DNA of 64,000 nt from a virus. Lineage: Duplodnaviria > Caudoviricetes. Under the pieces are notes generated by a model. That model was not told where the DNA came from. It searched no databases and was given only the letters and a program-made list of their open reading frames with translations. Below, in pieces: positions 4,880 to 63,425 of this stretch. Location of the stretch: positions 1-64,000 of the IMG/VR virus record IMGVR_UViG_3300021400_000143; one strand, 5' to 3'. The position numbers and the translations under genes are program-made. The stretch's first letter is position 1, and every line of letters starts with the position of its first letter.

Positions 4880-5296
4880 TTAAACCATTTCTGCGTATTC
4901 ATCTTCCTGTTCCCATCCCTCACAAGCCTTTGCGAGAACAGCCCAATAGTCCTTTCGGCTATTTCGTGGTCGTGTAGGTGTTTCGCCTTTCGCCAATGTG
5001 AGTGCAATCTCCTTCAACTTCCCTATTAGGTCGGCTGGAGTGTATTCTTGATTCTTCCATTCAGAAACCCAATCTGTGTTGCTAAAGTCGGGTTCTTCGG
5101 TAACGGCAATGTATCTGCCATCATCCCATTCGGGATATGTAGAGCCTGCAATGTAGTCGGTTGTGCTAACTTCGGCAACTCTCTTCAAGATGCAAGAAAA
5201 CTCGACTTCTCGCACTTCTTCTTCGGGGTCGCTTTGGTTCCAAGGCGCACGGGCATCGTGTTCCGCCCCTGCTGGATACCATCCTGATTCACTCAT
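4880..5296 (-). CDS. Acidic hypothetical protein (YPAGAEHD..APWN N-terminus)
   Basis: Recognisable phage N-terminal motif. Confidence 0.7.
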   Translation of the reverse strand: MSESGWYPAGAEHDARAPWNQSDPEEEVREVEFSCILKRVAEVSTTDYIAGSTYPEWDDGRYIAVTEEPDFSNTDWVSEWKNQEYTPADLIGKLKEIALTLAKGETPTRPRNSRKDYWAVLAKACEGWEQEDEYAEMV

Positions 5297-5320
5297 ATTT
5301 AAATATTATTTTTTTGGTTA

Positions 5321-6277
5321 TTATTCTTTGATGACTTCCGTAAATTCACCATTAACTAACTTATACCATGTATCTTCCTTGATGCGCTCGCCATCAACGT
5401 ATTCAGTCTTGACGCATTTTGGTTTCCAACGTCCGTCAGTGTCTATGTGCCATTCAGCAAGTGTTATCCATGAGCCTTTCTTTGCTTTTGCTATCGAATC
5501 ATTCCCAGCGCACATGATAACAGAATCATTTCCAGTGCTATTTATCTGTGCATAGTCACCGCTGCTGCCAATCTTTGCAGAGTAACCGCTGCTGCCAATC
5601 TGTGCATAGTCACCGCTGCTGCCAATCTTTGCAGAGTAACCGCTGCTGCCAATCTGTGCAAAGTCACCGCTGCTGCCAATCTTTGCATAGTCACCGCTGC
5701 TGCCAATCTTTGCAAAGTCACCGCTGCTGCCAATCTGTGCATAGTAACCGCTGCTGCCAATCTTTGCATAGTAACCGCTGCTGCCAATCTTTGCAAAGTA
5801 ACCGCTGCTGCCAATCTGTGCATAGTAACCGCTGCTGCCAATCTTTGCAGAGTCACCGCTGCTGCCAATCTTTGCATTTCTTTTGTCTTTGTCGCTAAGA
5901 TTATCTTCGTTGACATTCTTTTGTGAAGTCTTTTCTTTTATCCACTCAATACCAAGTTTGATAAAGTCGGAAAACTTTAATTCAGCATTAATCTTGATTT
6001 TGGATGAAACATTTTTTCTGCAATCATTCTCTTTCTTGATTATTCCGCTTTGCTCGACTTCGCAAAAACGTGCAAGTTCCGCGTTATCATCAAGAAAATA
6101 ATAGTCAAATACATTAAAAGGTGAGTCGCAAGCGTGAAATCCTTGCTCACACAATTTGGGTTCTACTCCTTTTGCCAATTCATATTCCTTGCCAACTTCG
6201 TACTGAAATCCTCTACATTTGAGGTCTTTGTCAAAGCCTTTGTAGGCGATGATTTTTGTTCCTTCTTCTTTAGCCAT
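5321..6277 (-). CDS. Repeat-containing phage protein (IIAYKGFDKDLKCRGFQYEVG N-domain + 9-aa repeats + conserved C-terminus)
   Basis: Widespread phage family architecture; 12 x A[KQ]IGSSG[DY][SYF]. Confidence 0.85.
   Translation of the reverse strand: MAKEEGTKIIAYKGFDKDLKCRGFQYEVGKEYELAKGVEPKLCEQGFHACDSPFNVFDYYFLDDNAELARFCEVEQSGIIKKENDCRKNVSSKIKINAELKFSDFIKLGIEWIKEKTSQKNVNEDNLSDKDKRNAKIGSSGDSAKIGSSGYYAQIGSSGYFAKIGSSGYYAKIGSSGYYAQIGSSGDFAKIGSSGDYAKIGSSGDFAQIGSSGYSAKIGSSGDYAQIGSSGYSAKIGSSGDYAQINSTGNDSVIMCAGNDSIAKAKKGSWITLAEWHIDTDGRWKPKCVKTEYVDGERIKEDTWYKLVNGEFTEVIKE
5553..5876 (-). repeat. 12 tandem 27-bp repeats within the CDS
   Basis: Invariant core ccgctgctgccaatct on the plus strand, repeating every 27 nt. 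Confidence 0.95.
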
Positions 6278-6291
6278 GATTTAATTTGAAT

Positions 6292-6465
6292 TTAGTCGTT
6301 ATGATTGTATGCTTCCTCACGATGGTAATTGCTCACCATAATGCGATGAATTATTTCTCTCGCTTCTTCGCTTTCGCATTGCTCTTTCAGATTGGAAATC
6401 AAATCCCATTGATAGAATGGCATTGTCTGCGCTTTTGCAATTAGTTGCTTGTCTTTTTCACTCAT
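6292..6465 (-). CDS. 57-aa hypothetical protein
   Basis: Manual translation MSEKDKQLIAKAQTMPFYQWDLISNLKEQCESEEAREII...HREE. Confidence 0.65.
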   Translation of the reverse strand: MSEKDKQLIAKAQTMPFYQWDLISNLKEQCESEEAREIIHRIMVSNYHREEAYNHND

Positions 6466-6507
6466 AATGATTTAGTTTTTAGTTGTTAGTTAATTCTTGA
6501 TACATAG

Positions 6508-6699
6508 TCATAATTCGTCGTCTTTATCAAGTAAGTCGCCAAGTTCTTTTTTCACTTTCGGAGTAATATACAAAGCCCATACTACAAACGGAATTGTAAG
6601 TATAGACCCTGCAAATACCAGTGATAAACATATTGCTGCACTGAAACAAAATGCAAGAACTTTCTGCTTTGTATTCATCTTTTTAAGTAAATCGTTCAT
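6508..6699 (-). CDS. Small two-TM membrane protein
   Basis: Hydrophobic core with charged ends. Confidence 0.6.
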   Translation of the reverse strand: MNDLLKKMNTKQKVLAFCFSAAICLSLVFAGSILTIPFVVWALYITPKVKKELGDLLDKDDEL

Positions 6700-6715
6700 A
6701 TTATTAAAGCTTTTA

Positions 6716-6747
6716 CAAAGTTATTATTAAATTTTGAATACACCAAA
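6716..6747 (-). promoter_or_regulatory. Bacteroidetes sigma70-type promoter
   Basis: Minus strand TTTG (6747-6744), 20-nt spacer, TAACTTTG (6723-6716). Confidence 0.7.
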
Positions 6748-6771
6748 TTTTTAAAGAACAAAAAAATGCTT

Positions 6772-7709: not shown

Positions 7710-7904
7710 TTACTTATTTTTGTTTTGCTCTCTTAAATAATCAACTATTGCAGCCATTGTGTCAAAAGAAATGTCAACATTGTAAAAAGAATCAATCTTG
7801 TAGCTGATTTCATCTTCCCAAACCGTAACTTGTCCGTCGCAACTTTCTTTTTCCGCGAGCGATTTAATATAATCTTGTTGTTCCTTAGTTTTTGCTTGTA
7901 ACAT
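7710..7904 (-). CDS. Hypothetical protein
   Basis: Operon packing. Confidence 0.6.
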   Translation of the reverse strand: MLQAKTKEQQDYIKSLAEKESCDGQVTVWEDEISYKIDSFYNVDISFDTMAAIVDYLREQNKNK

Positions 7905-8508
7905 AGTTATTTATTTTTTTGTTTATGATATTATGTACTTTTTCGTGGCAACATTTGCATAACACAATTACCTCATTGCATGTGTATTCCCATGCTTTGC
8001 GACCAGATTTGTATTTAGGATGATGTACTTGCAGAAAATTAGTGCTACCACATTGCTCACATTTCTTTCCACGCACAACAAAAACGAATTTCCGAAAAGC
8101 CAACCATTTCTCATCAGTCAGTTGTTCACTATAAGGTGTAAACTTTGTCTTTTTTTGAGGATTGGTTTCTTGCTTCTCTTTAACGATTAAATCGTTTATT
8201 GTCTTTCCATTTTGTAGTAAAGATTTTCGTATTAAGCGTTTTGCTTTTTTCTTATCTTTTTTATCAAGTTTGGTGTAACCAAGTTTCTTTGCATTTTTTT
8301 TCATATCTCTTTGTACGAGAATGGTATTGTAAACATTAACTGCATTTTCCAATGTCTGAACTTCTGTCCCTTTCCTTGTTTTCCATCTTTTGTTTTCCCA
8401 ATAATCATAACATTCTTGTGGGTCGCAATACAAACCTTTTTCTGCAATGTATATTTCCAACAATTCCAACTTTGGTTTACCGAATATTGTATCTCCTTGA
8501 AATGTCAT
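7885..8508 (-). CDS. HNH endonuclease with replisome-organiser-like N-terminal domain
   Basis: C-terminal CEQCG..LQVHH..LCKCCHEKVH; N-terminal DPQECYDYWENKRWK...LENAVNVYN. Confidence 0.8.
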   Translation of the reverse strand: MTFQGDTIFGKPKLELLEIYIAEKGLYCDPQECYDYWENKRWKTRKGTEVQTLENAVNVYNTILVQRDMKKNAKKLGYTKLDKKDKKKAKRLIRKSLLQNGKTINDLIVKEKQETNPQKKTKFTPYSEQLTDEKWLAFRKFVFVVRGKKCEQCGSTNFLQVHHPKYKSGRKAWEYTCNEVIVLCKCCHEKVHNIINKKINNYVTSKN

Positions 8509-35274: not shown

Positions 35275-35306
35275 CAAAGTTATGTTTATAATAAAATTAG
35301 CGCAAA
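35275..35306 (-). promoter_or_regulatory. Promoter of head/tail operon
   Basis: TTTG, 20-nt spacer, TAACTTTG. Confidence 0.75.
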
Positions 35307-35431: not shown

Positions 35432-37207
35432 ATGGCAAAGCGTAGAAACGACACGGTTTTATCACCTTTGGACGACGGCAACCAAAAGTATGCCATACGT
35501 TCAAATGCTGATATTGTGTGCTTCACTGGTAACACAGGTGGAGGTAAGAGCTATGCTTTGTATTACGCACCTATCGAATACCTTGCAATGAACGATAACG
35601 CAAAGATTGTTTGTTTCATGCGTAACGTATCCGACTTTTGGGGTGCAGGAAAAGTAAACGATACGCTAAAGAAAATGTATCCGCTTGTTGATAGGTCTGT
35701 AAAAAAACAACCACACGACCCAATCGGTGAAATCATACGTCGACAAGAGGATATGGGTATGAAACTTTACAATGGTAGCGAACTAAAGTTTCAGCAACTC
35801 GATAATGAAAGCCCTATTGTTATAGATAAAATCGCAAAAGGTTTGCAAGCAAAGAAACTAATCTTTGACGAGTGTAACAAGTTTCTTTGGAGAACAATAT
35901 CTACATTCTTTCCACGTTTACGTAGTGACTCAAATGGTAAGGCACAAGTGTTTCTTGCGCAAAACCCAGAGCGTGAGTGTTTCATGCGAAAGATGTGCGG
36001 AAAAGGTGAGCATGGTGGTGGATGGATAAACGATGATGGCACTACAGACAAGTCGATGGATGGTGTCGTAATGTATTTCTTTATGCCAAACGGTGATTAC
36101 GAACGTGCTGTTTGGGGTAGAACAAAGAAAGAGGTTTACGATAAAGGGAAAGAGGAAATAGATGCAAGATTGGCTATCGACAAGGATATGTCTTACGAAG
36201 ATTTTATTCTTTCGATGGTTTTCTATACATTTGATGTGCGAGATAACAAGAAAATGCTTGCAAAAAACAAGAGTTATCGTGGTTTGGCTGCAAACTCTGC
36301 TACCGCACAATCATCTTATGCTGCAAATTGGAACTATTCAATAACTGATGAAGAAACAAGTGTTGATGATTTGGTAAATGTGCAACTTAGCACAATGGAT
36401 GTCGAGCGGATGTTTAGACCTATGGAAATGCCGCATAATAGCGAGCTTGTAAAGAGGTTTATGACGGTCGATATGGCAACTACTGGATTTGATAACCTTG
36501 TTATGAAATATTGGGAATTGTATTCACATTATGGTTTTGTATGTAAAGATATTAAATATTCTATAAAGAATAGTAATAGAGAAGCTGTAATGATGATAAC
36601 AGATTTCAGAGATAGACATGGTTTAAATGAAAGAGAAATGATTCTTGATGTGCAAGGGTTTGGATTTCTTCGTGACTGTTATCCCCATGCTTTGTCTTTC
36701 TCTGGTGCTTCACAGCCAAGCAAACGTTCCAAAGCACAATACAAAACGCTAAAAGACGAAGCTGCACATTTGGCTATGGAAATGATTCAAAGCGGTTTGA
36801 TACATTACGAGCCAAGACTTTCAGAAGCGAGATATATGCACCAAAACATGAAACGAGAAGGTGCTACAACTATCTTACGGCACATGAAATTTGAGAGCGT
36901 AATCTTCCAATTCAACAAGACACCAAATGGTCGAATTGCTATGTTGGATAAGGAGAAGCAAAAACCTTTGCTTAAAGGTATGTCGCCCGATTTGTTCGAT
37001 AATGTTATAATGCTTTGTGGTGGTACATATTATGATTGCTATAGAATGTTGTCAACCGATGCAGGTATAATGCGTAAAACGATACAAGCAAGTGATATGC
37101 TATCTATGCTCAATGTTGGCAATATTAGCAATGAGCCAGATACAAGATTAGTTAGAAGAAAGATACATCATTCAGATAAAATACTTAACATATTAAGTAC
37201 AATATGA
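35432..37207 (+). CDS. terL: Terminase large subunit
   Basis: Walker A GNTGGGKS, Walker B LIFDE, AQNP coupling motif, nuclease VDMATTGFD...SPDLFD; start at ATG 35432. Confidence 0.93.
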   Translation: MAKRRNDTVLSPLDDGNQKYAIRSNADIVCFTGNTGGGKSYALYYAPIEYLAMNDNAKIVCFMRNVSDFWGAGKVNDTLKKMYPLVDRSVKKQPHDPIGEIIRRQEDMGMKLYNGSELKFQQLDNESPIVIDKIAKGLQAKKLIFDECNKFLWRTISTFFPRLRSDSNGKAQVFLAQNPERECFMRKMCGKGEHGGGWINDDGTTDKSMDGVVMYFFMPNGDYERAVWGRTKKEVYDKGKEEIDARLAIDKDMSYEDFILSMVFYTFDVRDNKKMLAKNKSYRGLAANSATAQSSYAANWNYSITDEETSVDDLVNVQLSTMDVERMFRPMEMPHNSELVKRFMTVDMATTGFDNLVMKYWELYSHYGFVCKDIKYSIKNSNREAVMMITDFRDRHGLNEREMILDVQGFGFLRDCYPHALSFSGASQPSKRSKAQYKTLKDEAAHLAMEMIQSGLIHYEPRLSEARYMHQNMKREGATTILRHMKFESVIFQFNKTPNGRIAMLDKEKQKPLLKGMSPDLFDNVIMLCGGTYYDCYRMLSTDAGIMRKTIQASDMLSMLNVGNISNEPDTRLVRRKIHHSDKILNILSTI

Positions 37208-38730
37208 TACGAGAACATGACATAAATTGGTTTTTACAAGACCCTACGAGGTTGATGAAGATGAAGCCTTTTACACGTGGCGGCGAGCCTAATTCTCACG
37301 GCTACGAAGGTTCAAGCATACTCAACAACCAGACACTCGAAACGGGTTTTGCAAGCTTAAACTTGCACCCTATTTCACAAGATACTTATATCACAGAGTA
37401 TCGACCAGACTTGCACCATATTATTCTTAATAAAGCAATCCCGAAGATAAAAGTATCAATCAACGGTGTTCGTCTTCCTTTTGATGAAATCACACAAACA
37501 GCTTCGTTCCAAAAGTTGATTCACTCTGCACATGTAAGAAACTTAACAGCCAACCAACTTGAATTTAGTCTTTGTAACGAGAACCCTGATTCAGAAGAGC
37601 AAAAAGCTTTTAGCGAAATCAAACAAGATTGGTTGTGGCGCGGTCTTGAATGGAATAAGTATCAAGCAATCAACACATGTAAGCAAGTAGGTAACTGCGC
37701 TGTACTTTTCTCTTATGACAAAACAACAAGTAAGTACACGGTTACTAACTACTCATACGAAGATGGCTATCAGATTGTACCTAACTATGACGAATATGGC
37801 ATTGAAATAGCACGTTCTCTTGTTTATCAAGTTGAAAATTCTATTATCATTGACACATACGATGCAAGAAAGCATTATAGAACTACACAGGGTGAAACAT
37901 CGTGGACTACACAGGTTGAAGTACATGGCTTTAGCCGTTGTCCTTTGCTACACAAACGTGGTAAGGTAGCGTGGGAATATGCCGAAAGTAGTATTGAAAT
38001 GTGGGAGTTGATGGCTAACATTCAAGCTATTGCTTTAAAACGTTTTGGTACGTTTGCACTCGTATTTATCGGTGAGATGGATACAGATTCGTTTAAGCGC
38101 GACTCCAGCACACTGATTATCAACTTGTCGAGCGACACAACCAATGGCAAGCAAGATGCAAAAGTGTTGGATTTCCCAGAGCCTCAAACGATGGACGGTT
38201 ATCTTAAAACACTCGAAGAAAAAATATCGTTGTTTAGCTCAACATCATTTATCACACCAAAAGATATTACAACATCTAATAGTGGTGGTAATGGTATTGC
38301 GCTTGCAATGTCTAACGATTACTCTCTTGCTACACAGTCTGCTATGGATTGGCAGAAGTTTGTAAACGAGATGGTATATCTGCACCAAGAAGGTCTTGAC
38401 CTTGAAAATGGTGGAACTGCACATTACGCAAAGGTAAAGATTGGTGCAAAGATTGTTCCTTGGTCTCTTGAAACGAACAATACTAAGATTACCAATTTGG
38501 CAATGGAAGCTCCTTATTTGTCAACTCAAACAATCATCGAGCGATGCCCAGATGCTGCGCCAGACGAGGTTGATAGGGTTATCAAAGAAAGGGGTGCGCT
38601 TATAAGCAGAAACGATAAGAGTATTGAGGATAATGCTGAAAAAGCGCACAACATTGCTGTTAATCGTAGCGATGAAATTCGTGATAATGAAGAAAAAATA
38701 GAAATCCAAAACGCGGAAATAAATCCGTAG
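37204..38730 (+). CDS. Portal protein
   Basis: 508 aa directly after TerL, SPP1-like size and motifs (SGGNGIAL). Confidence 0.88.
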   Translation: MIREHDINWFLQDPTRLMKMKPFTRGGEPNSHGYEGSSILNNQTLETGFASLNLHPISQDTYITEYRPDLHHIILNKAIPKIKVSINGVRLPFDEITQTASFQKLIHSAHVRNLTANQLEFSLCNENPDSEEQKAFSEIKQDWLWRGLEWNKYQAINTCKQVGNCAVLFSYDKTTSKYTVTNYSYEDGYQIVPNYDEYGIEIARSLVYQVENSIIIDTYDARKHYRTTQGETSWTTQVEVHGFSRCPLLHKRGKVAWEYAESSIEMWELMANIQAIALKRFGTFALVFIGEMDTDSFKRDSSTLIINLSSDTTNGKQDAKVLDFPEPQTMDGYLKTLEEKISLFSSTSFITPKDITTSNSGGNGIALAMSNDYSLATQSAMDWQKFVNEMVYLHQEGLDLENGGTAHYAKVKIGAKIVPWSLETNNTKITNLAMEAPYLSTQTIIERCPDAAPDEVDRVIKERGALISRNDKSIEDNAEKAHNIAVNRSDEIRDNEEKIEIQNAEINP

Positions 38731-38737
38731 TAAGAAA

Positions 38738-39175
38738 ATGGGAATTGTATTTGAAATAATTGCGCCTATTCTAACGCTCATTGCTGGAGGTGGTTGGTTT
38801 ATAACCTATCGCGCATACAAGCGTGGTGCTAATGGTGAAGCAACGCAGAAAGAAGCTGAAGGGTGGAAATCTATTCAAGATTTGTATCAACAAGCTATTG
38901 AAGATTTCAAAACTCACAGCCATGATATGCGTCAAGAGCGTGCTGTATTAAAGCAAGAGAATAAGGAAATGCGAGATAAGTACAACCAGATTGTCGAGGA
39001 AATTCTTATATTAAAAAAGCAGTTATCACGACAGGGTAGGAAAATAGAAGCTCTAACACCTTTCTTATGTAGTATCATAGGTTGCAAAAAAAGACGAAGG
39101 GACAACCTCGATGCTTTTGCATCTGATAATAGTCAAGAAAGCGATGATGAAGACACCACTGAACAAGAAAACTAA
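38738..39175 (+). CDS. Holin/antiholin-like protein (N-terminal TM + coiled coil)
   Basis: IIAPILTLIAGGGWFITY then heptads; precedes lysin. Confidence 0.65.
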   Translation: MGIVFEIIAPILTLIAGGGWFITYRAYKRGANGEATQKEAEGWKSIQDLYQQAIEDFKTHSHDMRQERAVLKQENKEMRDKYNQIVEEILILKKQLSRQGRKIEALTPFLCSIIGCKKRRRDNLDAFASDNSQESDDEDTTEQEN

Positions 39176-39180
39176 AAGAT

Positions 39181-39624
39181 ATGGAACTTATATTAAAACG
39201 AATAGCAAGAAAGCCAACATACACGATTGGTAAACTATATGTAAACAAAAAGTATGTCTGCGACACGCTTGAAGATTACGATAGGATTTACTTTGGTGGC
39301 TCAAAGGTGGCTGGGAAAACAGCTATCCCATGCGGTCGGTATCAGGTTATTTTAAATAGCTATTCGCCTCGTTTTGGTGCGAAAGAACCATATAAATCGG
39401 TGTGTGGTGGTTGTGTGCCGTTGATTGCAAATGTACCTAAGTTTAGCGGTATCAGAATACACATCGGAAACACAGAAGCCGACACGGATGGATGCCCTCT
39501 CGTTGGGAAAAACAAACAAGTTGGTCGCTTGGCTGATTCGAGAGTTACTTTCGTGTCTCTTATGAACGAATATCTTACACCAGCAAGAAAGCGTAATGAA
39601 AAAGTCTATATCACAATCTATTAA
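39181..39624 (+). CDS. DUF5675-family putative endolysin
   Basis: L.LKR....YTIGKLY..CDTLED...TAIP.G.Y...PKFSGIRIH.GNT..DTDGCPLVG. Confidence 0.85.
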   Translation: MELILKRIARKPTYTIGKLYVNKKYVCDTLEDYDRIYFGGSKVAGKTAIPCGRYQVILNSYSPRFGAKEPYKSVCGGCVPLIANVPKFSGIRIHIGNTEADTDGCPLVGKNKQVGRLADSRVTFVSLMNEYLTPARKRNEKVYITIY

Positions 39625-39628
39625 TGGT

Positions 39629-40051
39629 ATGAACGATTATCAGCATAACATAAAGAAACATTTCAAGTATTGCTTATTATTTTTTGCAATAATGATAGGA
39701 CTTTGTGCGCTATGCTCGTGTTCACACAAGTCTATTGAATACGTGGATAGAGAAGTCGTAAAGTACAACACAAAAGAAGTGCATGATACAACGTATATAG
39801 ATAGACATGATAGTATATACCACACTATCTTTCAAAAAGGAGATACAATCTATGACACGAAGTATGTAGAGAAAGTAAGGTACAAAGACAGGATGGTGTA
39901 TAAGTGCGACACGCTTACAAGAGACTCTATACAAATACAAGAAAAAACGATAGAAAAAGAAGTTACACCAAAATGGTGTTACTATTCTTTGGTTAGTTGG
40001 TTGATTATTATTATATTTGCAACATTAAAAGTTAGGAAATGGCTACATTAG
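39629..40051 (+). CDS. Putative unimolecular spanin (lipoprotein with C-terminal TM)
   Basis: Lipobox LCSC after hydrophobic signal; C-terminal TM YYSLVSWLIIIIFATL; follows lysin. Confidence 0.7.
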   Translation: MNDYQHNIKKHFKYCLLFFAIMIGLCALCSCSHKSIEYVDREVVKYNTKEVHDTTYIDRHDSIYHTIFQKGDTIYDTKYVEKVRYKDRMVYKCDTLTRDSIQIQEKTIEKEVTPKWCYYSLVSWLIIIIFATLKVRKWLH

Positions 40052-47115: not shown

Positions 47116-48234
47116 ATGACACCAGAAGAGAAACAAGAAATAATAACCGCTGCAACGACCGCAGTTCTACAGCAACTGTTTGGAGCGAAGGGCATTGACA
47201 TCACGGGACTTAGTTCAGTGCAGTCTCTTGATGGTATCTCCACGTTCCCTGCAATACAGTCTGTCAATGGAGATTTGGCACTCGTAAGCGTTCCCATCTC
47301 GCTCTTGACACAAGCTGTTCAGACTGTGATTGGTCATGCAGAACAAGCAACCGCTAACGCTCAAAGTGCTGCGGCTGGATGGGCTGCGGCGGCACACAAA
47401 ACGAATGGTGAGATAACTATTATCAATGGAAATATAACCACACTCCAGAACGCCGACAAATCGCTCTCTACGCTTACTTCTTACGCGGAGTGTTCTACTG
47501 GTGCAGACACTGCTTCAAAAGCCGTTACGATTCAAGATTTTGCATTACCTATACGTGGTGGTTGCTTGCATATCAAAATGGCAAATGCGAACACGGCTGC
47601 ATCGAATGTAACACTTAATATCAACGCAACAGGAGCAAAGCCTTTGTACTACAACGGTAGTGCTGTTAGCGCAACAAACACATGGGAAGCAAACGAAGTT
47701 ATCGAGGTGTACTACGATGGCAATAATTACCAAGCCAGCAATGCGCGAGGTGGTGGAGGTCGCGCTGATAAAATCTCGTTTGATAACACCGTTAAAGACA
47801 AGTACGAATCTGATGATGTGCAAGGAGTAATTGATGAAATGTCTGACGAGATTGACGATGTAGTAAGTGGTGTAGAAAGTAATACAAGTGCTATTACAAC
47901 GCTGAACAACACGACTCTTCCTACTTTACAAAGCACATTGCAAGGTAATGTTGATGCAATCGCATCGGTGTATAACGTCACAAAGAATCATCCTCTCCAA
48001 AGCGGTTCCTACGATATAGCCAGCGCATCTGCTGCCGTCCCTTCTGCAAAAAGAAGTGTCGGTTTAATTATAACTTACCAAACAGGTGCAAGTACATGGG
48101 AAGCCAAGCAATTCATCGGTAGCAACGTATCTGGATGGGCTACCGAATCCAACTGGACTGACTTTGGTGGTGGAGGTAGTGATTTCGTAGAGGTAACGAG
48201 TGCGCAGGTCGCTACAATGGAAGACCCGACATAA
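47116..48234 (+). CDS. Tail fibre-associated protein
   Basis: Coiled-coil plus conserved phage fibre modules (LNIN.TGAKPLYYNG; KRSVGLIITY...WE..QFIG). Confidence 0.75.
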   Translation: MTPEEKQEIITAATTAVLQQLFGAKGIDITGLSSVQSLDGISTFPAIQSVNGDLALVSVPISLLTQAVQTVIGHAEQATANAQSAAAGWAAAAHKTNGEITIINGNITTLQNADKSLSTLTSYAECSTGADTASKAVTIQDFALPIRGGCLHIKMANANTAASNVTLNINATGAKPLYYNGSAVSATNTWEANEVIEVYYDGNNYQASNARGGGGRADKISFDNTVKDKYESDDVQGVIDEMSDEIDDVVSGVESNTSAITTLNNTTLPTLQSTLQGNVDAIASVYNVTKNHPLQSGSYDIASASAAVPSAKRSVGLIITYQTGASTWEAKQFIGSNVSGWATESNWTDFGGGGSDFVEVTSAQVATMEDPT

Positions 48235-52337: not shown

Positions 52338-52652
52338 ATGAAAAAGATTATTGATTTCTTAAAGAAAATCGAAGCATGGATTTTTCGATTGTTTGATAAG
52401 ATTGCCGACACAGCGGTAGGTAAGTGGCTTAGTGAAGGTACACGATGGGCTTGGATGCTGATTGGCTTGGTAGTAGGTCTTAGTTCTTGCAACTGGTACA
52501 ACGCTTGTCATTCGGGAATTATCATAGCCATATTTTATGTGGTGTATGACAGAATCGAATATAAACGTGACCATAGTTGGTGGACGTTTATTTTGACGTT
52601 CCTATGCTCGGTTGCAGGTCAAGGAATTATTCAACTTCTTACAGAGCAATGA
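52338..52652 (+). CDS. Membrane protein (holin-like)
   Basis: Three hydrophobic segments. Confidence 0.6.
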   Translation: MKKIIDFLKKIEAWIFRLFDKIADTAVGKWLSEGTRWAWMLIGLVVGLSSCNWYNACHSGIIIAIFYVVYDRIEYKRDHSWWTFILTFLCSVAGQGIIQLLTEQ

Positions 52653-52888
52653 GTGAAACTGAAAAGAAAGAAGTCTTGAAGCAAAAGACACAAGAAAGGT
52701 TATTACAGGCTTGTGAACGGCTTTACAATGCTGAACTTGGTTTGTGCGAATTGGTTGTCCCTCAATCGTGGAAAGATGAACACAGATTTGCTCACGATGA
52801 ATGGGTAAATGCTTTTCAAGATTACGATGAAGCAAGGACTGCGCTATCTTTGGAGGACATGGAATTAAATTTTGATTATGGAGTATAA
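52649..52888 (+). CDS. Hypothetical helical protein
   Basis: Start trimmed to MSETEKK at ATGA overlap. Confidence 0.65.
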   Translation: MSETEKKEVLKQKTQERLLQACERLYNAELGLCELVVPQSWKDEHRFAHDEWVNAFQDYDEARTALSLEDMELNFDYGV

Positions 52889-53108
52889 TGCACATAAACG
52901 GAATATCATCGGCACAATATGCTTCTTTGCTTTGGGCGTGCTGATAGGTGGATTTGCTTCCATGATAGCGGTTATTCGTGAATGGGTGCAATACAAGGCA
53001 AATGGTGTCTTGGAGCAGGGTGACTTGTGGAGATATGTGTTTGCATCTTCCATAGGCGCAGTGATTCAATTCATTGTATTACTAATAATTATACTTACAA
53101 GAATTTAA
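52872..53108 (+). CDS. Small membrane protein (holin-like)
   Basis: Two TM segments around REWVQY...DLW. Confidence 0.6.
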   Translation: MIMEYNAHKRNIIGTICFFALGVLIGGFASMIAVIREWVQYKANGVLEQGDLWRYVFASSIGAVIQFIVLLIIILTRI

Positions 53109-53196
53109 AAAAATATTGTGACAAAAATATTTTTGATTGTAAGTATTTGACACACAATCTTTTAATAAGAGCAATAAGAACTTAATATAGTTTCTT

Positions 53197-53227
53197 ATTG
53201 CTTTTCTTTTTTATTGTTGTAAATTTG
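53197..53227 (+). promoter_or_regulatory. Promoter of the Cys-Cys-Cys operon
   Basis: ATTG, 19-nt spacer, TAAATTTG; 5' UTR of about 50 nt to ATG 53285. Confidence 0.65.
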
Positions 53228-53284
53228 CGCCGTAGTGCTACACAAAATCCTTATTACTTCACTAATTTCTTAAAACTTAAACTT

Positions 53285-54232
53285 ATGGCAGAAATTTATC
53301 AGCTTCCAGAAAATGGAAACAACAATGGAGGGTTTGGTAACATTCCTTTCTCTATTCCTATCGGTGGTTTTGGTGGTGGCGGTCTGTTCGGTAATGGTAA
53401 TTACGGCATGAACGGGATTGCTGACTTGTTTGGACTTGCTATCATTGCTTCAATGTTCGGCTGGAACGGTGGTGGATTTGGCAATGGAGGCTTTGGCGGA
53501 GGCAATTCAGGCGCGGCTTTCTTGGCTAATCAGCTCTCGAACGATTCTGGTCGTGAACTCATTATGAATGCTATTACCAATCAAGGTGAGGCATCTCGTA
53601 CCGCTATCCAGACGTTAAGTACAATGCTCGGGCAAGACTTTAATCTTGTAAATGGTGCTGTGAATAACGTACAGAGCGCACTTAGCAACCTTGCTTTGCA
53701 GCAAGCTGTAAGTGTACCACAGATTATCAACTCCATCCAGTCGGGTGACGCGAGCATTATCAGTGCGTTCCAGAAGTGTTGCTGCGACCAACAGCTTGCT
53801 ACTTGTCAGCAAACGAACACCTTGCAAAATGCAATCAACGGCGTAGGTAATCAAGTACAAGCAAAAGCAGCCGCAGACCAGCTTGCAATGTGTCAGCAAA
53901 CTTACGCTCTCACAGACAACATGAATCGCAATTTCATTGCAATCGACAACAAACTTGATGCAATGGAGTCGAATCGAAAAGACCGTGAGATTACTGCTCT
54001 TACCGCAAAGGTTGCACAGCTCGAATCGCAGAACTTTACTACGGGTGTTGTTCAGCAAGCTGTTTCTCCTATTCTCGGTCAGCTCGCAGGTATCCAGAAT
54101 CAGGTTGACGACATCAAGAACAAACTTCCAAACACCGTTCCTGTTCAGTATCCTAACTTACAGGTAGTGAACTCTACACCTTACATGGGTGGTTTCTATG
54201 GAAATGGTTTTGGTGGTAACATCATATTGTAA
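53285..54232 (+). CDS. Gly-rich, Gln/Asn-rich coiled-coil protein with CCC motif
   Basis: GGFGGGG N-region, FQKCCCDQQLATCQ, RKDREI..L.AKVAQLESQ; start at ATG 53285. Confidence 0.85.
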   Translation: MAEIYQLPENGNNNGGFGNIPFSIPIGGFGGGGLFGNGNYGMNGIADLFGLAIIASMFGWNGGGFGNGGFGGGNSGAAFLANQLSNDSGRELIMNAITNQGEASRTAIQTLSTMLGQDFNLVNGAVNNVQSALSNLALQQAVSVPQIINSIQSGDASIISAFQKCCCDQQLATCQQTNTLQNAINGVGNQVQAKAAADQLAMCQQTYALTDNMNRNFIAIDNKLDAMESNRKDREITALTAKVAQLESQNFTTGVVQQAVSPILGQLAGIQNQVDDIKNKLPNTVPVQYPNLQVVNSTPYMGGFYGNGFGGNIIL

Positions 54233-54255
54233 TTTAAGGCATAGGAGGTAAAAGC

Positions 54256-54591
54256 ATGAATTGTAACGCAAACATAACAATAAATGCAGGAGGTCAGCCT
54301 TACATTGCAAACACACAAGTCGTTGTAGGAACTGACACGGTTAATATTGCGCTCGGATGGAGACGTATTCAGCCGATAGGTTACTTTACTGTTCGTATGG
54401 AAAATGCAATTCCAGCAGATGCAACCGCAACGCTTCCAATCACACTTACTTTGAATGGTGTAACAAGAGCGTTGACTTTGCCAAATGGTGCAGCGGTTAC
54501 GGTTGCTGACTTACTGGCTACGAATGTGTTCCTTGTATTCAACGATAGATTTAACGGGATACTCTCGTTAATGTCAAGAACGATTGTGTAA
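54256..54591 (+). CDS. Small beta-rich hypothetical protein
   Basis: AGGAGG RBS; second gene of operon. Confidence 0.75.
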   Translation: MNCNANITINAGGQPYIANTQVVVGTDTVNIALGWRRIQPIGYFTVRMENAIPADATATLPITLTLNGVTRALTLPNGAAVTVADLLATNVFLVFNDRFNGILSLMSRTIV

Positions 54592-54613
54592 TCAACCAAT
54601 AAAATTTACTAAC

Positions 54614-55150
54614 ATGGATTTCAATTCTTTAGGTAACGGCAATCCGTTTTATGTTCTTCGTAGAGGTGAAAAGCCTTTATTGGAAGTTGGTGTCGTAAAA
54701 GCGAAAAGTCAGCCAAGAGCAAAGTTTCCAACGCAGACGCCCAATATTGCTATGGGTATGCAAGTGCAACAAGTTATTGATGTAACTGCTACTATCAATG
54801 GCAAAGATGAAGTGTTTAACGATATACCAATAAATGTAGAAATTGCCGCAAGAGGTAACGACACGTTCAGTGGTAGTCGTGAAGCAATGTTGCAAGCTGT
54901 TGACGCTATGCTTCAAACGTCAAAGAAAGCCATCGACCAGATTCCTTATCACAAAAGCGTGATTTCAGAAAGCGAAAAGATGCTTGAAGTGCTGAACCCA
55001 CAATATGCAGAGAACAAGAAACAAGCGAGAACGATTCAAAACTTAGAAGAAAAGCAAAAGGCAACTGACGCAAGGATTGCAACGATTGAATCGCAAAACG
55101 CAGAAATGCTTTCTATTCTTCGCTCGTTAAACGGTGGAGCTTCAACCTAA
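54614..55150 (+). CDS. Hypothetical protein, beta N-domain + C-terminal coiled coil
   Basis: Start trimmed to MDFNSLG; EVLNPQYAE...coiled coil. Confidence 0.75.
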   Translation: MDFNSLGNGNPFYVLRRGEKPLLEVGVVKAKSQPRAKFPTQTPNIAMGMQVQQVIDVTATINGKDEVFNDIPINVEIAARGNDTFSGSREAMLQAVDAMLQTSKKAIDQIPYHKSVISESEKMLEVLNPQYAENKKQARTIQNLEEKQKATDARIATIESQNAEMLSILRSLNGGAST

Positions 55151-55185
55151 AGAATTTGAACCCACAAAAAGAAAGGACTTTACAA

Positions 55186-55422
55186 ATGGGTTATATTTTT
55201 GTAGATAAAGACAGCGATGGAGGTCAGTCTTCCATGCGTCAACAGATGCGCAGAAATATGAGAGGTGGTTATCGTTATGGTGGCACAAATCCGATGATGC
55301 GCGGAGATTACAACGAAGGCTATCGTCAGGGCTATAGGCACGGCTGGGAAGATAAAGAAGATGAATGGGAAGATGAAGAGCATTATCGTCGTCAGCGTGA
55401 TAGCAGAGGAAGGTATATTTAA
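55186..55422 (+). CDS. Disordered Arg/Gly/Tyr-rich protein ending RRQRDSRGRYI
   Basis: Start at ATG 55186 after GAAAGGA; low-complexity. Confidence 0.75.
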   Translation: MGYIFVDKDSDGGQSSMRQQMRRNMRGGYRYGGTNPMMRGDYNEGYRQGYRHGWEDKEDEWEDEEHYRRQRDSRGRYI

Positions 55423-55427
55423 AATAA

Positions 55428-55472
55428 AGAAAGGGATTGGATTGGGTAGTCTTGTACTATTCAATCCTTTCT
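55428..55472 (+). terminator. Imperfect hairpin / attenuator inside operon
   Basis: GAAAGGGATTGG...TTCAATCCTTTC. Confidence 0.45.
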
Positions 55473-55497
55473 AATATTAAATAAATTAGAAAGAATT

Positions 55498-55896
55498 ATG
55501 AAACATTATATTTCAGAAGATAGAGCAATCTATGAGGATATGTATCATGGTTTGTTTAGCAAAAGACTTGCAGAGTGGGCTATTTCAAATATGGAAATGA
55601 AAGACCCAGCAACAAAAACCATGAAACGCATTGTTGTTAGAAAGGTAGATGATGTTCAAGAAGTGTTGAAAGAAAATGGTGTTGAGTTACCAAGTGAATT
55701 TGTTTATACAAGTTGGTATTTGTTTAATATGGCTGTTGCTGATTATCAAAAGACTTGCAAGACGGATGAACTACGTGCGACGTTCGTAGAGGAAACGCTT
55801 TGTGACCCTGATGGTATGCCAGAGAACGTGCTGGATTGCTTTGTAACAAAGATGTGTAACGCAGGCATTCCTATCTATTGGGAAAGGTATCTATAA
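55498..55896 (+). CDS. Conserved helical hypothetical protein
   Basis: FSKRLAEWAISNM...YLFNMA.ADY...DPDG...W. Confidence 0.75.
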   Translation: MKHYISEDRAIYEDMYHGLFSKRLAEWAISNMEMKDPATKTMKRIVVRKVDDVQEVLKENGVELPSEFVYTSWYLFNMAVADYQKTCKTDELRATFVEETLCDPDGMPENVLDCFVTKMCNAGIPIYWERYL

Positions 55897-55913
55897 TATA
55901 ATAAGTTTGTCGT

Positions 55914-56306
55914 ATGGAGACCAAGTATATTAACGTACCACCTAACAATAGGTGGGGTGTAATAGTTGTTTATAATTTCGACACAAATAGAGACGCTGTT
56001 GAACTTATAGCAATAATGCGTTCGTTTGGTATGTCGTTGTTTAATGCGAAAAAAGCATTAGATGTATTATCGGACTACAATACAGGTATGGCACTTTCGT
56101 TAGACGATTTACGTATGTCGGCTATATTTATTGGTAAGGCAACAAGTGCTGAACAATTTTGGGATTCCGTGAACCATGAACTTTATCATGTGAATACGTC
56201 TATCATTGATTATTACAATGAGCCTTATAATGAAGAGGGTGCGGCTTATCTCCAAGGATGGCTGATGCAACAAGCGGTTTTGTTACTTGGTGAACCTTGC
56301 TATTAA
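55914..56306 (+). CDS. Putative zinc metallopeptidase
   Basis: HELYH (HExxH) followed 14 residues later by EEGAAYLQG (gluzincin-type third ligand). Confidence 0.65.
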   Translation: METKYINVPPNNRWGVIVVYNFDTNRDAVELIAIMRSFGMSLFNAKKALDVLSDYNTGMALSLDDLRMSAIFIGKATSAEQFWDSVNHELYHVNTSIIDYYNEPYNEEGAAYLQGWLMQQAVLLLGEPCY

Positions 56307-56333
56307 CAACAATAATACATACAAAGAAAGATT

Positions 56334-56657
56334 ATGGAAAGAGAAAAACTTTTGCAAGAATATGAGACTACGCTTAATAGTCTCATAGAAAAAACTCGAT
56401 TTGTGTATTCAGAAGAATTTTACAAACTTGACGAGTTTGAGAAGCAGAAATACACAAAAGACAAGATGGCAACAGAAGGACACCTTAACACATTAAGCAC
56501 TTTGTTATGGGCAAAAGTTCCTCAACTAAGTAGCGTGACCGATTTGTTTGCGCTTGGTATTCTTGGCTCGATGTTTGGTAATAACTGGAGCAATCCATCT
56601 ATGCTTAATGCACCAAAATTAGAAGGGGAAAAACTCGAAGAAGTTAAAATCGAATAA
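56334..56657 (+). CDS. Hypothetical protein
   Basis: Last gene of operon. Confidence 0.65.
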   Translation: MEREKLLQEYETTLNSLIEKTRFVYSEEFYKLDEFEKQKYTKDKMATEGHLNTLSTLLWAKVPQLSSVTDLFALGILGSMFGNNWSNPSMLNAPKLEGEKLEEVKIE

Positions 56658-56709: not shown

Positions 56710-56762
56710 AGATAGAAGCCGTTACAACGCACAACAGAGCGCAAATAACGGCTATTTCTATT
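56710..56762. terminator. Hairpin between convergent operons
   Basis: AGCCGTTA (56717-24) / TAACGGCT (56746-53) with extended flanks. Confidence 0.65.
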
Positions 56763-57832: not shown

Positions 57833-58393
57833 TTATAATTCTTCTATGATAAAGCGAAACGTGTTTTTGTTTTTCTTTTGCTCTGATTTTGCCCAAGAGA
57901 GGGTTGAAAGCGGTATGTTTAATTTTTTAGAAGCCGCTGTTAATGATGGAAATATCTCATTATACAAACCGTCTCTTGATGAAATCAAAACTTTTAAAGT
58001 GTTTTTACCAACAGTATTCGGGTTGTTTACGTTTTCAAGTCTTGTTGCCCACCTAAGATTAGTAACCAAATTATTTACTTTATCTCCATCTATATGGTCA
58101 ACTTCTTTTTTACCATGAATATTTGGAAGAAAAGCTTCTGCAACCAATCTATGAATATACTTTTCTTTTGATGTTTTTTTATTTCCATTACTTAAACATA
58201 CAAATAAATACTTATTATCCTTTACTCTTGGTTTTAAAATTTTTTCTTCGCACATTACTGTGCAAAAACCACGGGTGACTTTATGTGACAAAACTTTTAC
58301 TCTTCCATAATTGCTAACTTGGTAATAACCTTTATAGCCAGCAATATCTCGCCAAACCTCGTTAGTCATATCAAAAGTTTTTTCTTCTTCCAT
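57833..58393 (-). CDS. NUMOD4-HNH homing endonuclease
   Basis: EVWRDI.GY.G.YQVSNYGRVK; HRLVAEAF; VDHIDGDK.NN...NLRW. Confidence 0.92.
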   Translation of the reverse strand: MEEEKTFDMTNEVWRDIAGYKGYYQVSNYGRVKVLSHKVTRGFCTVMCEEKILKPRVKDNKYLFVCLSNGNKKTSKEKYIHRLVAEAFLPNIHGKKEVDHIDGDKVNNLVTNLRWATRLENVNNPNTVGKNTLKVLISSRDGLYNEIFPSLTAASKKLNIPLSTLSWAKSEQKKNKNTFRFIIEEL

Positions 58394-63303: not shown

Positions 63304-63425
63304 GAGTGGTGTGGGACTCGAACCCTTCTAAATGACAAATCCTTGTTACTTCACTTTAATCAATCATTATGGCAAAAAAGAGTTGAGTGCTTTATTTCCT
63401 GTGACGCGCACAACGTCCACCACTC
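63304..63425 (-). ncRNA. tRNA-like RNA B carrying an antisense insert
   Basis: GAGTGGTG / CACCACTC closing stem, GACG-TTGTGCG-CGTC hairpin, 77-nt insert, GGG-TTCGAGT-CCC T-loop hairpin. Confidence 0.65.

Follow-up and report, generated by a model that had tools for sequence, protein, structure and literature searches.

The described systems closest to the locus considered here are phage lysis cassettes, built of holin, endolysin and spanin genes or, in T4, of t, rI and rIII; morons such as lambda bor and lom; small zincins of the Peptidase_M78, SprT/Wss1-like and MPTase-PolyVal kinds; and the C4-type antisense RNAs of phages P1 and P7, which mask a translation start. Here we describe a gene cassette of IMG/VR virus record IMGVR_UViG_3300021400_000143, the complete genome (80,615 bp, with terminal overlap) of a siphovirus-type phage infecting Bacteroidales, together with its gene set, conservation, order, boundaries, motifs, gene-3 fold and neighbourhoods; positions refer to the 64,000-nucleotide stretch that was analysed (the window), which begins at the first nucleotide of the record. 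Seven open reading frames (ORFs) in the same direction fill positions 53285-56657 of the + strand, and they make up a genuine gene block, probably transcribed on its own, with six conserved members and an optional seventh. An initial annotation had singled out this block and proposed a function for it; the observation as a whole holds, with corrections of coordinates, whereas the interpretation is only partly supported. Our tentative reading is that the cassette may be a late envelope-acting accessory unit, often located beside lysis genes; what it makes towards the end of infection would most likely be a protein assembly anchored in the membrane, and not a protective crystal or matrix.

Conservation of gene content and order carries the finding of a discrete block. 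Relatives were collected from IMG/VR by searches with genes 3 and 6 (28 loci, on contigs mostly of ~55-88 kb) and from species-representative metagenome-assembled genomes (MAGs) of rumen and gut Bacteroidales, searched with the gene-1 alignment (19 loci). Genes 1-6 are colinear in 28 of the 28 IMG/VR loci that reach far enough, and the block is held in 17 of the 19 MAG loci, some of which are prophages; the MAG hosts belong to Prevotella, Bacteroidaceae, Paludibacteraceae and Muribaculaceae, and one contig was binned as Treponema. Genes 1-6 do co-occur across genomes, then, and the earlier description of a self-contained cassette recurring in gut phages without an assigned function is borne out; the cassette is located outside the packaging, head-tail and replication modules. 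The same description counted seven genes in the operon: genes 1-6 stand as its conserved core, whereas gene 7, present in 7 of the 28 IMG/VR loci and in about eight loci overall when MAGs are included, is optional. All seven genes are under purifying selection with respect to their relatives, with a median ratio of nonsynonymous to synonymous rates (dN/dS) of 0.11-0.36 at a dS near saturation.

The carriers comprise ~75-88-kb siphovirus-type phages of rumen and gut, crAss-like phages of at least three families, and prophages. Among the Crassvirales, members of three families carry recognisable parts of the cassette. In cr116_1 (Steigviridae), a second small HExxH protein, gene 1, a gene-2-like gene, gene 3, a charged peptide and a gene-6-like zincin follow one another directly before a scaffold-like gene and the gene of the major capsid protein (MCP); cr272_1 (Suoliviridae) has gene 1, gene 2, a gene-4-like peptide, gene 3 and a DUF7841 protein; and in cr109_1 a DUF7841 domain (1.7e-43) fused to a gene-4-like R/G/Y tail is followed by genes 1, 2 and 3. 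Genes 1-6 are also found in the cultured Bacteroides phage C3_41T2LP, after its recombination genes. This phage, grown on B. uniformis, is the only cultured carrier found by tblastn, which with the present gene 1 or its cr116_1 homologue gave none in crAss001 or other cultured crAss-like phages; blastn of the whole cassette against the phage collection returned no match. In the Bacteroidaceae prophage L043 (contig of 539 kb) one finds, in order, a fibre gene, DUF5675, a protein with a transmembrane (TM) helix and coiled coil, a multi-TM (4-TM) protein, a protein of 108 amino acids (aa), genes 1-6 and an integrase, the latter followed by host lipoprotein genes. The immediate neighbours of the cassette vary accordingly, being tail fibres here, recombination genes in C3_41T2LP, scaffold and MCP genes in cr116_1 and an integrase in L043.

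Signals on both sides delimit the block. Upstream, a terminator-like hairpin with a T-run (53167-53205, + strand; 16-bp stem, fold z -5.05) would close the tail-fibre and small-membrane-protein genes and insulate the cassette; downstream, a bidirectional terminator-like hairpin (56711-56762; 14-bp stem, z -3.68) lies in the convergent gap to the replication and recombination genes. A candidate Bacteroidota-type -7 promoter box, TAAATTTG, is placed at 53220-53227 (+ strand), 58 bases before the ATG of gene 1. By itself this motif is no rarity in the genome, with 71 occurrences where 53 would be expected, so that a promoter of the cassette's own is only plausible; of the promoter and terminal hairpin initially proposed, the hairpins stand and the box remains a candidate. 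The motif also occurs at the divergent head/terminase promoter region, where the TAnnTTTG boxes at 35275 (- strand) and 35392 (+ strand) point outward in the 115-base gap between head operon and terminase gene and are likely a divergent promoter pair. Within the cassette, a hairpin followed by a U-rich tract between genes 4 and 5 (55439-55467, + strand; 12-bp stem, z -3.26) is a possible attenuator. Two gene starts were corrected by alignment: gene 1 begins at ATG 53285, from which the invariant MAEIYQLPEN... is read, and not at TTG 53198, which sits within the upstream hairpin; gene 4 begins at ATG 55186 (MGYIFVD) and not at TTG 55156. Four contigs from a gut metatranscriptome library are identical to 54020-54325, 54548-54736, 54852-55146 and 55165-55389. 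They bridge the junctions of genes 1 and 2 and of genes 2 and 3 and give a weak hint of transcription, DNA carry-over being possible. RNA-library contigs as a whole covered only 53470-55389, and no weight attaches to the missing cover of genes 5-7 and the flanks.

Gene 1 (53285-54232, + strand; 315 aa) matches phrog_16490 at 2.8e-23 and has more than 6500 relatives at E <= 0.001 in a collection of 5.8 billion proteins, with no Pfam domain. Its N-terminus is invariant (MAEIYQLPE...IPFSIPIGG), and residues 1-76 contain no Lys or Arg. A hydrophobic helix at residues 45-60, IADLFGLAIIASMFGW, flanked by Gly/aromatic runs, is present in every lineage; in the homologues from crAss-like phages, C3_41T2LP and the virus vir215 the helix is rich in Trp, Phe and Leu and the tail in Cys and Gly. 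The Gly/Phe/Asn runs reach 32-62% Gly and 12-14% aromatic residues. A predicted helical rod of ~200 residues (~77-278) follows, and then a Gly/aromatic tail. Residues ~80-170 are strongly conserved and end in an invariant CCC (165-167); segment 168-292, in turn, is variable and exists as two allelic types, of 25-31% or 67-81% identity to the window copy, between flanks of 53-93% identity to it. By analogy, this mosaic distal rod would evolve as surface- or partner-contacting proteins do. Alignment and composition therefore uphold the Gly/aromatic runs, the CCC motif and the long helix first seen in this protein. The AlphaFold2 (AF2) monomer is all-helical over 77-278 with a predicted local distance difference test score (pLDDT) of 44.6, unusable for fold search, as would be expected of an oligomeric coiled coil. 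No longer fused forms of gene 1 were found, which is weak evidence, and a complex prediction of gene 1 (60-315) with genes 2 and 3 scored 0.00 and speaks neither for nor against binding. In vir215 (L033, Caudoviricetes sp.; temperate, 37.7 kb, with Methanomassiliicoccales as the labelled host) a homologue stands alone at 5878-6759, without genes 2-6 (E 1.8e-16 to the gene-1 profile); it contains two CCC motifs and a TM helix and is located after the reverse transcriptase of a diversity-generating retroelement.

The optional gene 7 (56334-56657, + strand; 107 aa) encodes a charged helical N-domain and a C-terminal hydrophobic helix which, with its Gly flank, is homologous to that of gene 1 (hhalign probability 88%, E 2.8e-6). 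In locus L026 a gene-7-like gene is located upstream, not downstream, of gene 1.

The proteins encoded between these two lack signal peptides throughout (genes 2-6). Gene 2 (54256-54591, + strand; 111 aa) is small and beta-rich, with a Cys near the N-terminus, matches phrog_31654 at 1.6e-9 and shows neither signal peptide nor lipobox in its alignment; a relation to the gene-3 barrel (hhalign probability 0.9%) and one to the fibre-region protein at 47116-48234 (8%) were both rejected. Gene 3 (54614-55150, + strand; 178 aa) is predicted with high confidence (pLDDT 94.3, from a 124-sequence alignment) to fold into an SH3-like beta-barrel (11-86) and a three-helix stalk (89-177) with helices at 89-108 and 110-127 and a 49-residue helix at 129-177. 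The modelled barrel superposes on EF-P/eIF5A domain I and on Tudor/chromo barrels with Z 6.4-6.8 and a root-mean-square deviation of ~2 Å over ~60 residues (at the best Z of 6.8, 1.9-2.0 Å over 58-59 residues), and such a match at Z < 8 may reflect no more than a common small-barrel arrangement, with no function implied. Foldseek gave no match for the gene-3 model in the PDB at E <= 0.001, and in BFVD only uncharacterised proteins of crAss-like and other phages, the best from cr109_1. Clustered at 50% identity, its relatives fall into 697 groups, every one of them made up of stand-alone proteins ~160-190 aa long. Sequence-profile searches of the PDB with genes 2, 3, 5 and 6 gave nothing significant, and the ESM Atlas returned only unnamed viral clusters, or no usable match, for genes 1 and 3.

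Gene 4 (55186-55422, + strand; 78 aa) encodes a polyampholyte peptide of R, G, Y, D and E (19% Arg+Lys, 19% Asp+Glu, 15% Gly, 14% aromatic) with conserved MGYIFVD, GYRxGYKHGWED and C-terminal RRxRDSRGR[YF]; the alignment confirms the R/G/Y-rich protein ending in RRQRDSRGRYI that had been reported at this position. Gene 5 (55498-55896, + strand; 132 aa) is helical and belongs to Pfam DUF7841, with 43.3 bits against a cut-off of 25.2; its homologue in cr109_1 reaches 148 bits, and since that homologue is a natural fusion of genes 5 and 4, the two appear functionally tied.

Gene 6 (55914-56306, + strand; 130 aa) is a minimal protein with a zincin motif. H88, E89 and H92 (HELYH) and E108 are invariant in 22 sequences, and E108, which the sequence suggests as third zinc ligand, lies within E-x-x-A-A-Y-x-x-G. 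The zincin-motif protein initially reported is therefore real, with an invariant HExxH...E, and reaches no curated peptidase family: for the window protein no Pfam family was found at E up to 1, and the members gave only sub-threshold matches to Peptidase_M78 (6 of 22, best E 0.0019), SprT-like (3 of 22) and DUF6782. The best hit of a PDB profile search, to lugdulysin (E 0.059), covers only the surroundings of the motif, and the 621 relatives are all unnamed. In C3_41T2LP the zincin is annotated as 'PolyVal metallopeptidase superfamily', a label not reproduced by our Pfam scan (L002:10515-10979), which gave only DUF5816 at E 0.19. The proposal of a dedicated maturation protease goes beyond these data, no substrate or cleavage site having been found. 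An endolysin role for gene 6 was rejected: lysins are not usually HExxH enzymes, and a lysin-type gene, DUF5675, is already present in the phage. In cr116_1 (L003), two small HExxH proteins flank the cassette (5276-5623 and 7856-8251), and of these the upstream protein (115 aa, HECLH...E..DAY) appears to be a truncated paralogue of gene 6.

The zincin could alternatively be taken as the centre of a host-takeover, regulatory or counter-defence system, in which a peptidase distantly like ImmA/IrrE or SprT cleaves a regulator of host or phage, nucleic acid is bound by DUF7841 together with the R/G/Y tail, and the membrane protein is a sensor or anchor. The Peptidase_M78 and SprT-like matches and the PolyVal label of C3_41T2LP are in line with this notion, as are the depositors' name 'RNA polymerase sigma factor/ubiquitin-like' for the cr109_1 DUF7841 protein and the autonomous, moron-like character of a unit that adjoins integrase genes in prophages. 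All these matches are, however, below curated thresholds, the C3_41T2LP zincin has no metallopeptidase family in Pfam at E up to 1, and PADLOC gives nothing meaningful; moreover, takeover functions are usually early, and the late position and the recoded stops in crAss-like carriers agree badly with this. We consider such a role unlikely.

The composition of genes 1, 4 and 7 bears on the function first proposed for the cassette, namely a disulfide-crosslinked, self-assembling matrix or condensate matured by the zincin, serving virion occlusion or host dormancy. The Gly/Phe/Tyr/Asn runs of genes 1 and 7 and the Arg/Gly/Tyr polyampholyte of gene 4 are indeed typical of phase-separating proteins, the CCC of gene 1 is invariant and the zincin is conserved within the unit. 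Nevertheless, the hydrophobic helix of gene 1, kept in every lineage, points toward a membrane anchor and not a soluble matrix. In addition, disulfide chemistry and an oxidising compartment are doubtful in the cell of an obligate anaerobe, and nothing in the phage points to occlusion bodies. The suggested likeness to baculovirus P10 or polyhedron-envelope proteins is coiled-coil noise (NPV_P10 at 14.5 bits against a threshold of 29.8, E 0.05), none of the sequence and structure searches run gave a relation to spore-coat or polyhedron-envelope proteins, and no search linked the cassette to occlusion or coat proteins. An occlusion or dormancy matrix is, in our view, very unlikely. A membrane-tethered variant, improbable as well, would have the proteins phase-separate late in infection into a layer on the inner membrane, where assembly, egress or exclusion could take place. 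It builds on a resemblance to cohesive FG or prion-like sequence seen in the Gly/Phe/Tyr/Asn runs that adjoin the hydrophobic helices of genes 1 and 7; the gene-4 polyampholyte, fused to DUF7841 in cr109_1, would be a component of the layer, the SH3-like stalk protein and the beta protein its clients or caps, and the mini-zincin a switch that matures or dissolves it.

We favour instead a model in which the cassette acts at the host envelope. It would be an autonomous late transcription unit, moving as one block among unrelated Bacteroidales phages. Gene 1 would be held in the membrane by its one very hydrophobic helix, followed by a membrane-proximal conserved domain (~80-170, with the CCC) and then by a distal rod swapped between the two allelic types; genes 2-6 would assemble on gene 1 or regulate it, the zincin may trim or switch one of the cassette partners, and gene 7, where present, would supply another protein with an anchor helix of this kind. 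At the end of infection the cassette would act as an accessory to lysis, which could concern lysis timing, release efficiency or protection of the infected cell from further phage; it most likely does not belong to the virion. Membrane location, assembly, late timing, envelope role and the task of the zincin are suggested by architecture and neighbourhood. In this regard, the anchor helix, partners devoid of signal peptides, late position and recoding, lysis neighbours and the mosaicism of the rod are all consistent with the model. The cassette is probably expressed late: it is placed at the end of the fibre/late strand, and in recoded-stop crAss-like genomes (L001 = cr109_1; L004 = cr272_1) genes 1, 3 and 5 have in-frame stops under translation table 11. 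In-frame recoded stops have been described as typical of late structural and lysis genes (review PMC10136315).

The link to lysis comes from the neighbourhood. A DUF5675 lysin-type gene is found at most 6 kb away in 9-10 of ~50 loci, annotated holin or endolysin genes are located near the cassette in cr109_1, cr116_1 and cr272_1, and in the source phage two small multi-TM proteins precede it. The source phage itself has a lysis-type set directly after the portal gene, composed of a 145-aa TM-plus-coiled-coil protein with an N-terminal TM helix (38738-39175), a DUF5675 lysin-type protein (39181-39624; 3.1e-28) and a 151-aa protein (39596-40051) in which a lipobox-like signal, ..GLCALCSC, is combined with a hydrophobic TM helix at the C-terminus. 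The architecture of the latter is that of a unimolecular spanin. DUF5675 has been placed by structure with C82-type peptidase lysins (2026 preprint 10.64898/2026.04.11.717860). Because this separate holin/endolysin/spanin-like set exists at 38.7-40.0 kb, the cassette would not be the core lysis machinery, and with head, tail and lysis functions encoded elsewhere it would be an addition and not a missing core module.

That the cassette is itself a core lysis element, with gene 1 as a T4 T-like holin or a spanin-like membrane fuser and the other genes as antiholin-like regulators, therefore seems hardly likely. The proteins to compare are lambda Rz, an i-spanin, and T4 T, a single-pass holin with a large extracytoplasmic domain. 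A single hydrophobic helix combined with a long coiled coil and conserved Cys does recall class III holins and i-spanins, the Gly-flanked helix is reminiscent of viral fusion peptides (a resemblance only), lysis genes are nearby in several lineages, and an antisense copy of the gene-1 start region, described below, would suit a lethal, timed protein. Compared with the spanin pattern, gene 1 has its helix at 45-60 and then the predicted helix at 77-278, with flanking charges near nil. Against such a role, both the source phage and the prophage L043 have separate holin-like, DUF5675 and spanin-like genes; the cassette contains no lipoprotein partner, gene 2 being without signal peptide or lipobox and the spanin-like protein being encoded at 39596-40051; and Pfam, PHROGs and NCBIfam show no sequence relation to holin or spanin families.

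A virion-associated structure is a further alternative, which we judge rather unlikely. Gene 1 would here be a fibre-like coiled-coil rod and genes 2 and 3 tip or bead proteins, or the products would make up a whisker, an accessory fibre or a set of ejected membrane-penetrating proteins, with the zincin as an assembly or wall-cutting enzyme. The position of the cassette speaks for this: it follows tail-fibre genes here and in most relatives, and it lies within the late structural unit of crAss-like phages, beside the scaffold-like and MCP genes in cr116_1. Furthermore, the mosaic distal rod of gene 1 evolves like a fibre, and depositors labelled gene-1 relatives as 'outer capsid protein/viral fiber' or 'spike protein/glycoprotein'. 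Yet the block is common to podovirus-type crAss-like, siphovirus-type and small temperate phages and changes position among them, which is unusual for a structural part, and a Trp/Phe-rich hydrophobic helix is atypical of virion proteins. The gene-2 profile aligns with the fibre-region protein at an hhalign probability of only 8%, PDB profile and Foldseek searches gave no match to any solved phage structural protein, and tblastn found no gene-1 relative in cultured crAss-like phages, crAss001 included, but only in C3_41T2LP.

Several observations weigh against the envelope-acting unit that we favour. Its function is deduced from architecture and neighbourhood only, because no protein of the cassette has a characterised relative, and the model of the gene-1 monomer is unusable (pLDDT 44.6). 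The lysis link is one of neighbourhood, since the source phage encodes a full lysis-type set elsewhere (38738-40051), and neither the source genome nor most IMG/VR loci have a lysis neighbourhood around the cassette. The flanks of the gene-1 helix carry almost no charge and give no lead on its topology. Homology to the tail-anchored helix of gene 7 suggests an N-in/C-out orientation of gene 1; a periplasmic rod, however, could not meet the products of genes 2-6, as these lack signal peptides, and they would rather suit a cytoplasmic rod. Finally, integrase adjacency and a promoter and terminator of its own would also fit a moron expressed from the prophage.

A second element of the window had been held to time the cassette post-transcriptionally. 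RNA B (63304-63425, - strand) has the shape of a tRNA and contains an insert that is reverse-complementary to the leader and start of gene 1. On the + strand, 63335-63383 repeats, ~10 kb from gene 1, the gene-1 leader (18 of the 19 bases of 53245-53263) and the start region TTATGGCA.AAA in the same order, the copied leader and start codon spanning 53245-53296 (+ strand). Because of this repeat in the same order, a - strand transcript of RNA B would be an antisense RNA to the part of gene 1 where ribosomes load. A rough estimate puts the expectation of a match this long, for a 100-base region compared with an 80-kb genome, at well below one in a hundred. ARAGORN calls no tRNA at RNA B, and a scan of IMG/VR with the scaffold pattern gave only ordinary tRNAs. 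In five complete cassette-carrying relatives RNA B was not found, BLAST giving only chance matches of 14-20 bases. Thus the copy of the start region is real, and the timing once ascribed to it is not general; its absence from the five relatives makes any control local to the source phage, in which translation of gene 1 may be restrained by the antisense insert. If this control is real, early expression of gene 1 would be harmful, which would fit an envelope-active product.

In the source genome, the large terminase (35432-37207) and portal (37204-38730) genes are on the + strand, the head-tail operon, encoding a 2024-aa tape-measure-type protein, is on the - strand, and a fibre-type protein of 2356 aa is accompanied by other fibre genes reaching 52279. 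Between the last fibre gene and the cassette, 52338-53108 encodes a soluble ORF of 79 aa and two small proteins with several TM segments (104 and 78 aa), none of them kept upstream of the cassette in relatives. Replication and recombination genes occupy the - strand from 56761 on; an HNH homing endonuclease is encoded at 57833-58393. The gap between genes 2 and 3 holds ~0.7-0.8 kb of inserted sequence in L021, L022, L024, L030 and L035. In L046 (9012-9674, - strand) the insert at this site is a 220-aa ORF in the opposite direction, and the N-terminus of this ORF has a ...WRD..G.EG.Y.VSN.. motif also found in the HNH endonuclease. Directly upstream of the cassette, L043 (7207-7882) and cr116_1 (L003:4653-5274) have in common a 140-aa multi-TM protein and a 108-aa protein, at 31% identity each, the second being annotated 'terminase small subunit/excisionase' in cr116_1. 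The portable unit may accordingly be larger in some lineages.

Taken together, our findings place the cassette outside the known kinds, as only the generic zincin motif and the small barrel have known relatives, all six conserved proteins are annotated as hypothetical or with misleading coiled-coil labels, and no described phage system has this composition. PADLOC and NCBIfam gave no meaningful match for the cassette proteins, and none of the genes was connected by any search to families of capsid, tail, coat or occlusion proteins, of holins or spanins, or of defence proteins. Since a six-gene unit has been kept in order across such different phages, it must matter for the infection of Bacteroidales. 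Its breadth, covering thousands of gut and rumen phages and including the most abundant order of human gut phages, gives it a possible bearing on the way in which phages exit from or guard the cell; for crAss-like phages, both lysis and persistence are poorly understood. The cultured carrier C3_41T2LP makes its function directly testable and, with that breadth, makes the cassette a good experimental target.

With respect to the described systems, gene 6 shares with small zincins the HExxH motif and a Glu located 16 residues after the second His, and its size (~130 aa) and predicted helix pattern would suit a minimal zincin; it differs in reaching no curated family and in having no partner repressor or DNA-binding domain. 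The putative RNA B, like the C4-type RNAs, contains an inverted copy of a leader and start, that of gene 1, and differs from them by its tRNA-shaped scaffold and by its absence from the five complete relatives. The cassette resembles lysis cassettes in its presumably late expression, its small soluble partners, its single-pass membrane protein with a large helical domain and conserved Cys, its frequent endolysin- or holin-type neighbours and the possible translational brake on the membrane protein. It departs from them in having no sequence or fold relation to holin, antiholin or spanin families and no lipoprotein partner, in the presence of a separate lysis-type set in the source phage, and in six conserved genes, zincin included, without counterpart in the known ones. 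With morons it has in common a promoter-like box, terminators on both sides, varied insertion sites and integrase-adjacent prophage copies, and the hairpins, the candidate -7 box and the differing neighbours reported here conform to that pattern; morons, however, are usually confined to a lineage, consist of one gene or two and are expressed from the prophage, whereas this cassette has six genes and is conserved in strictly lytic crAss-like phages and in thousands of genomes.

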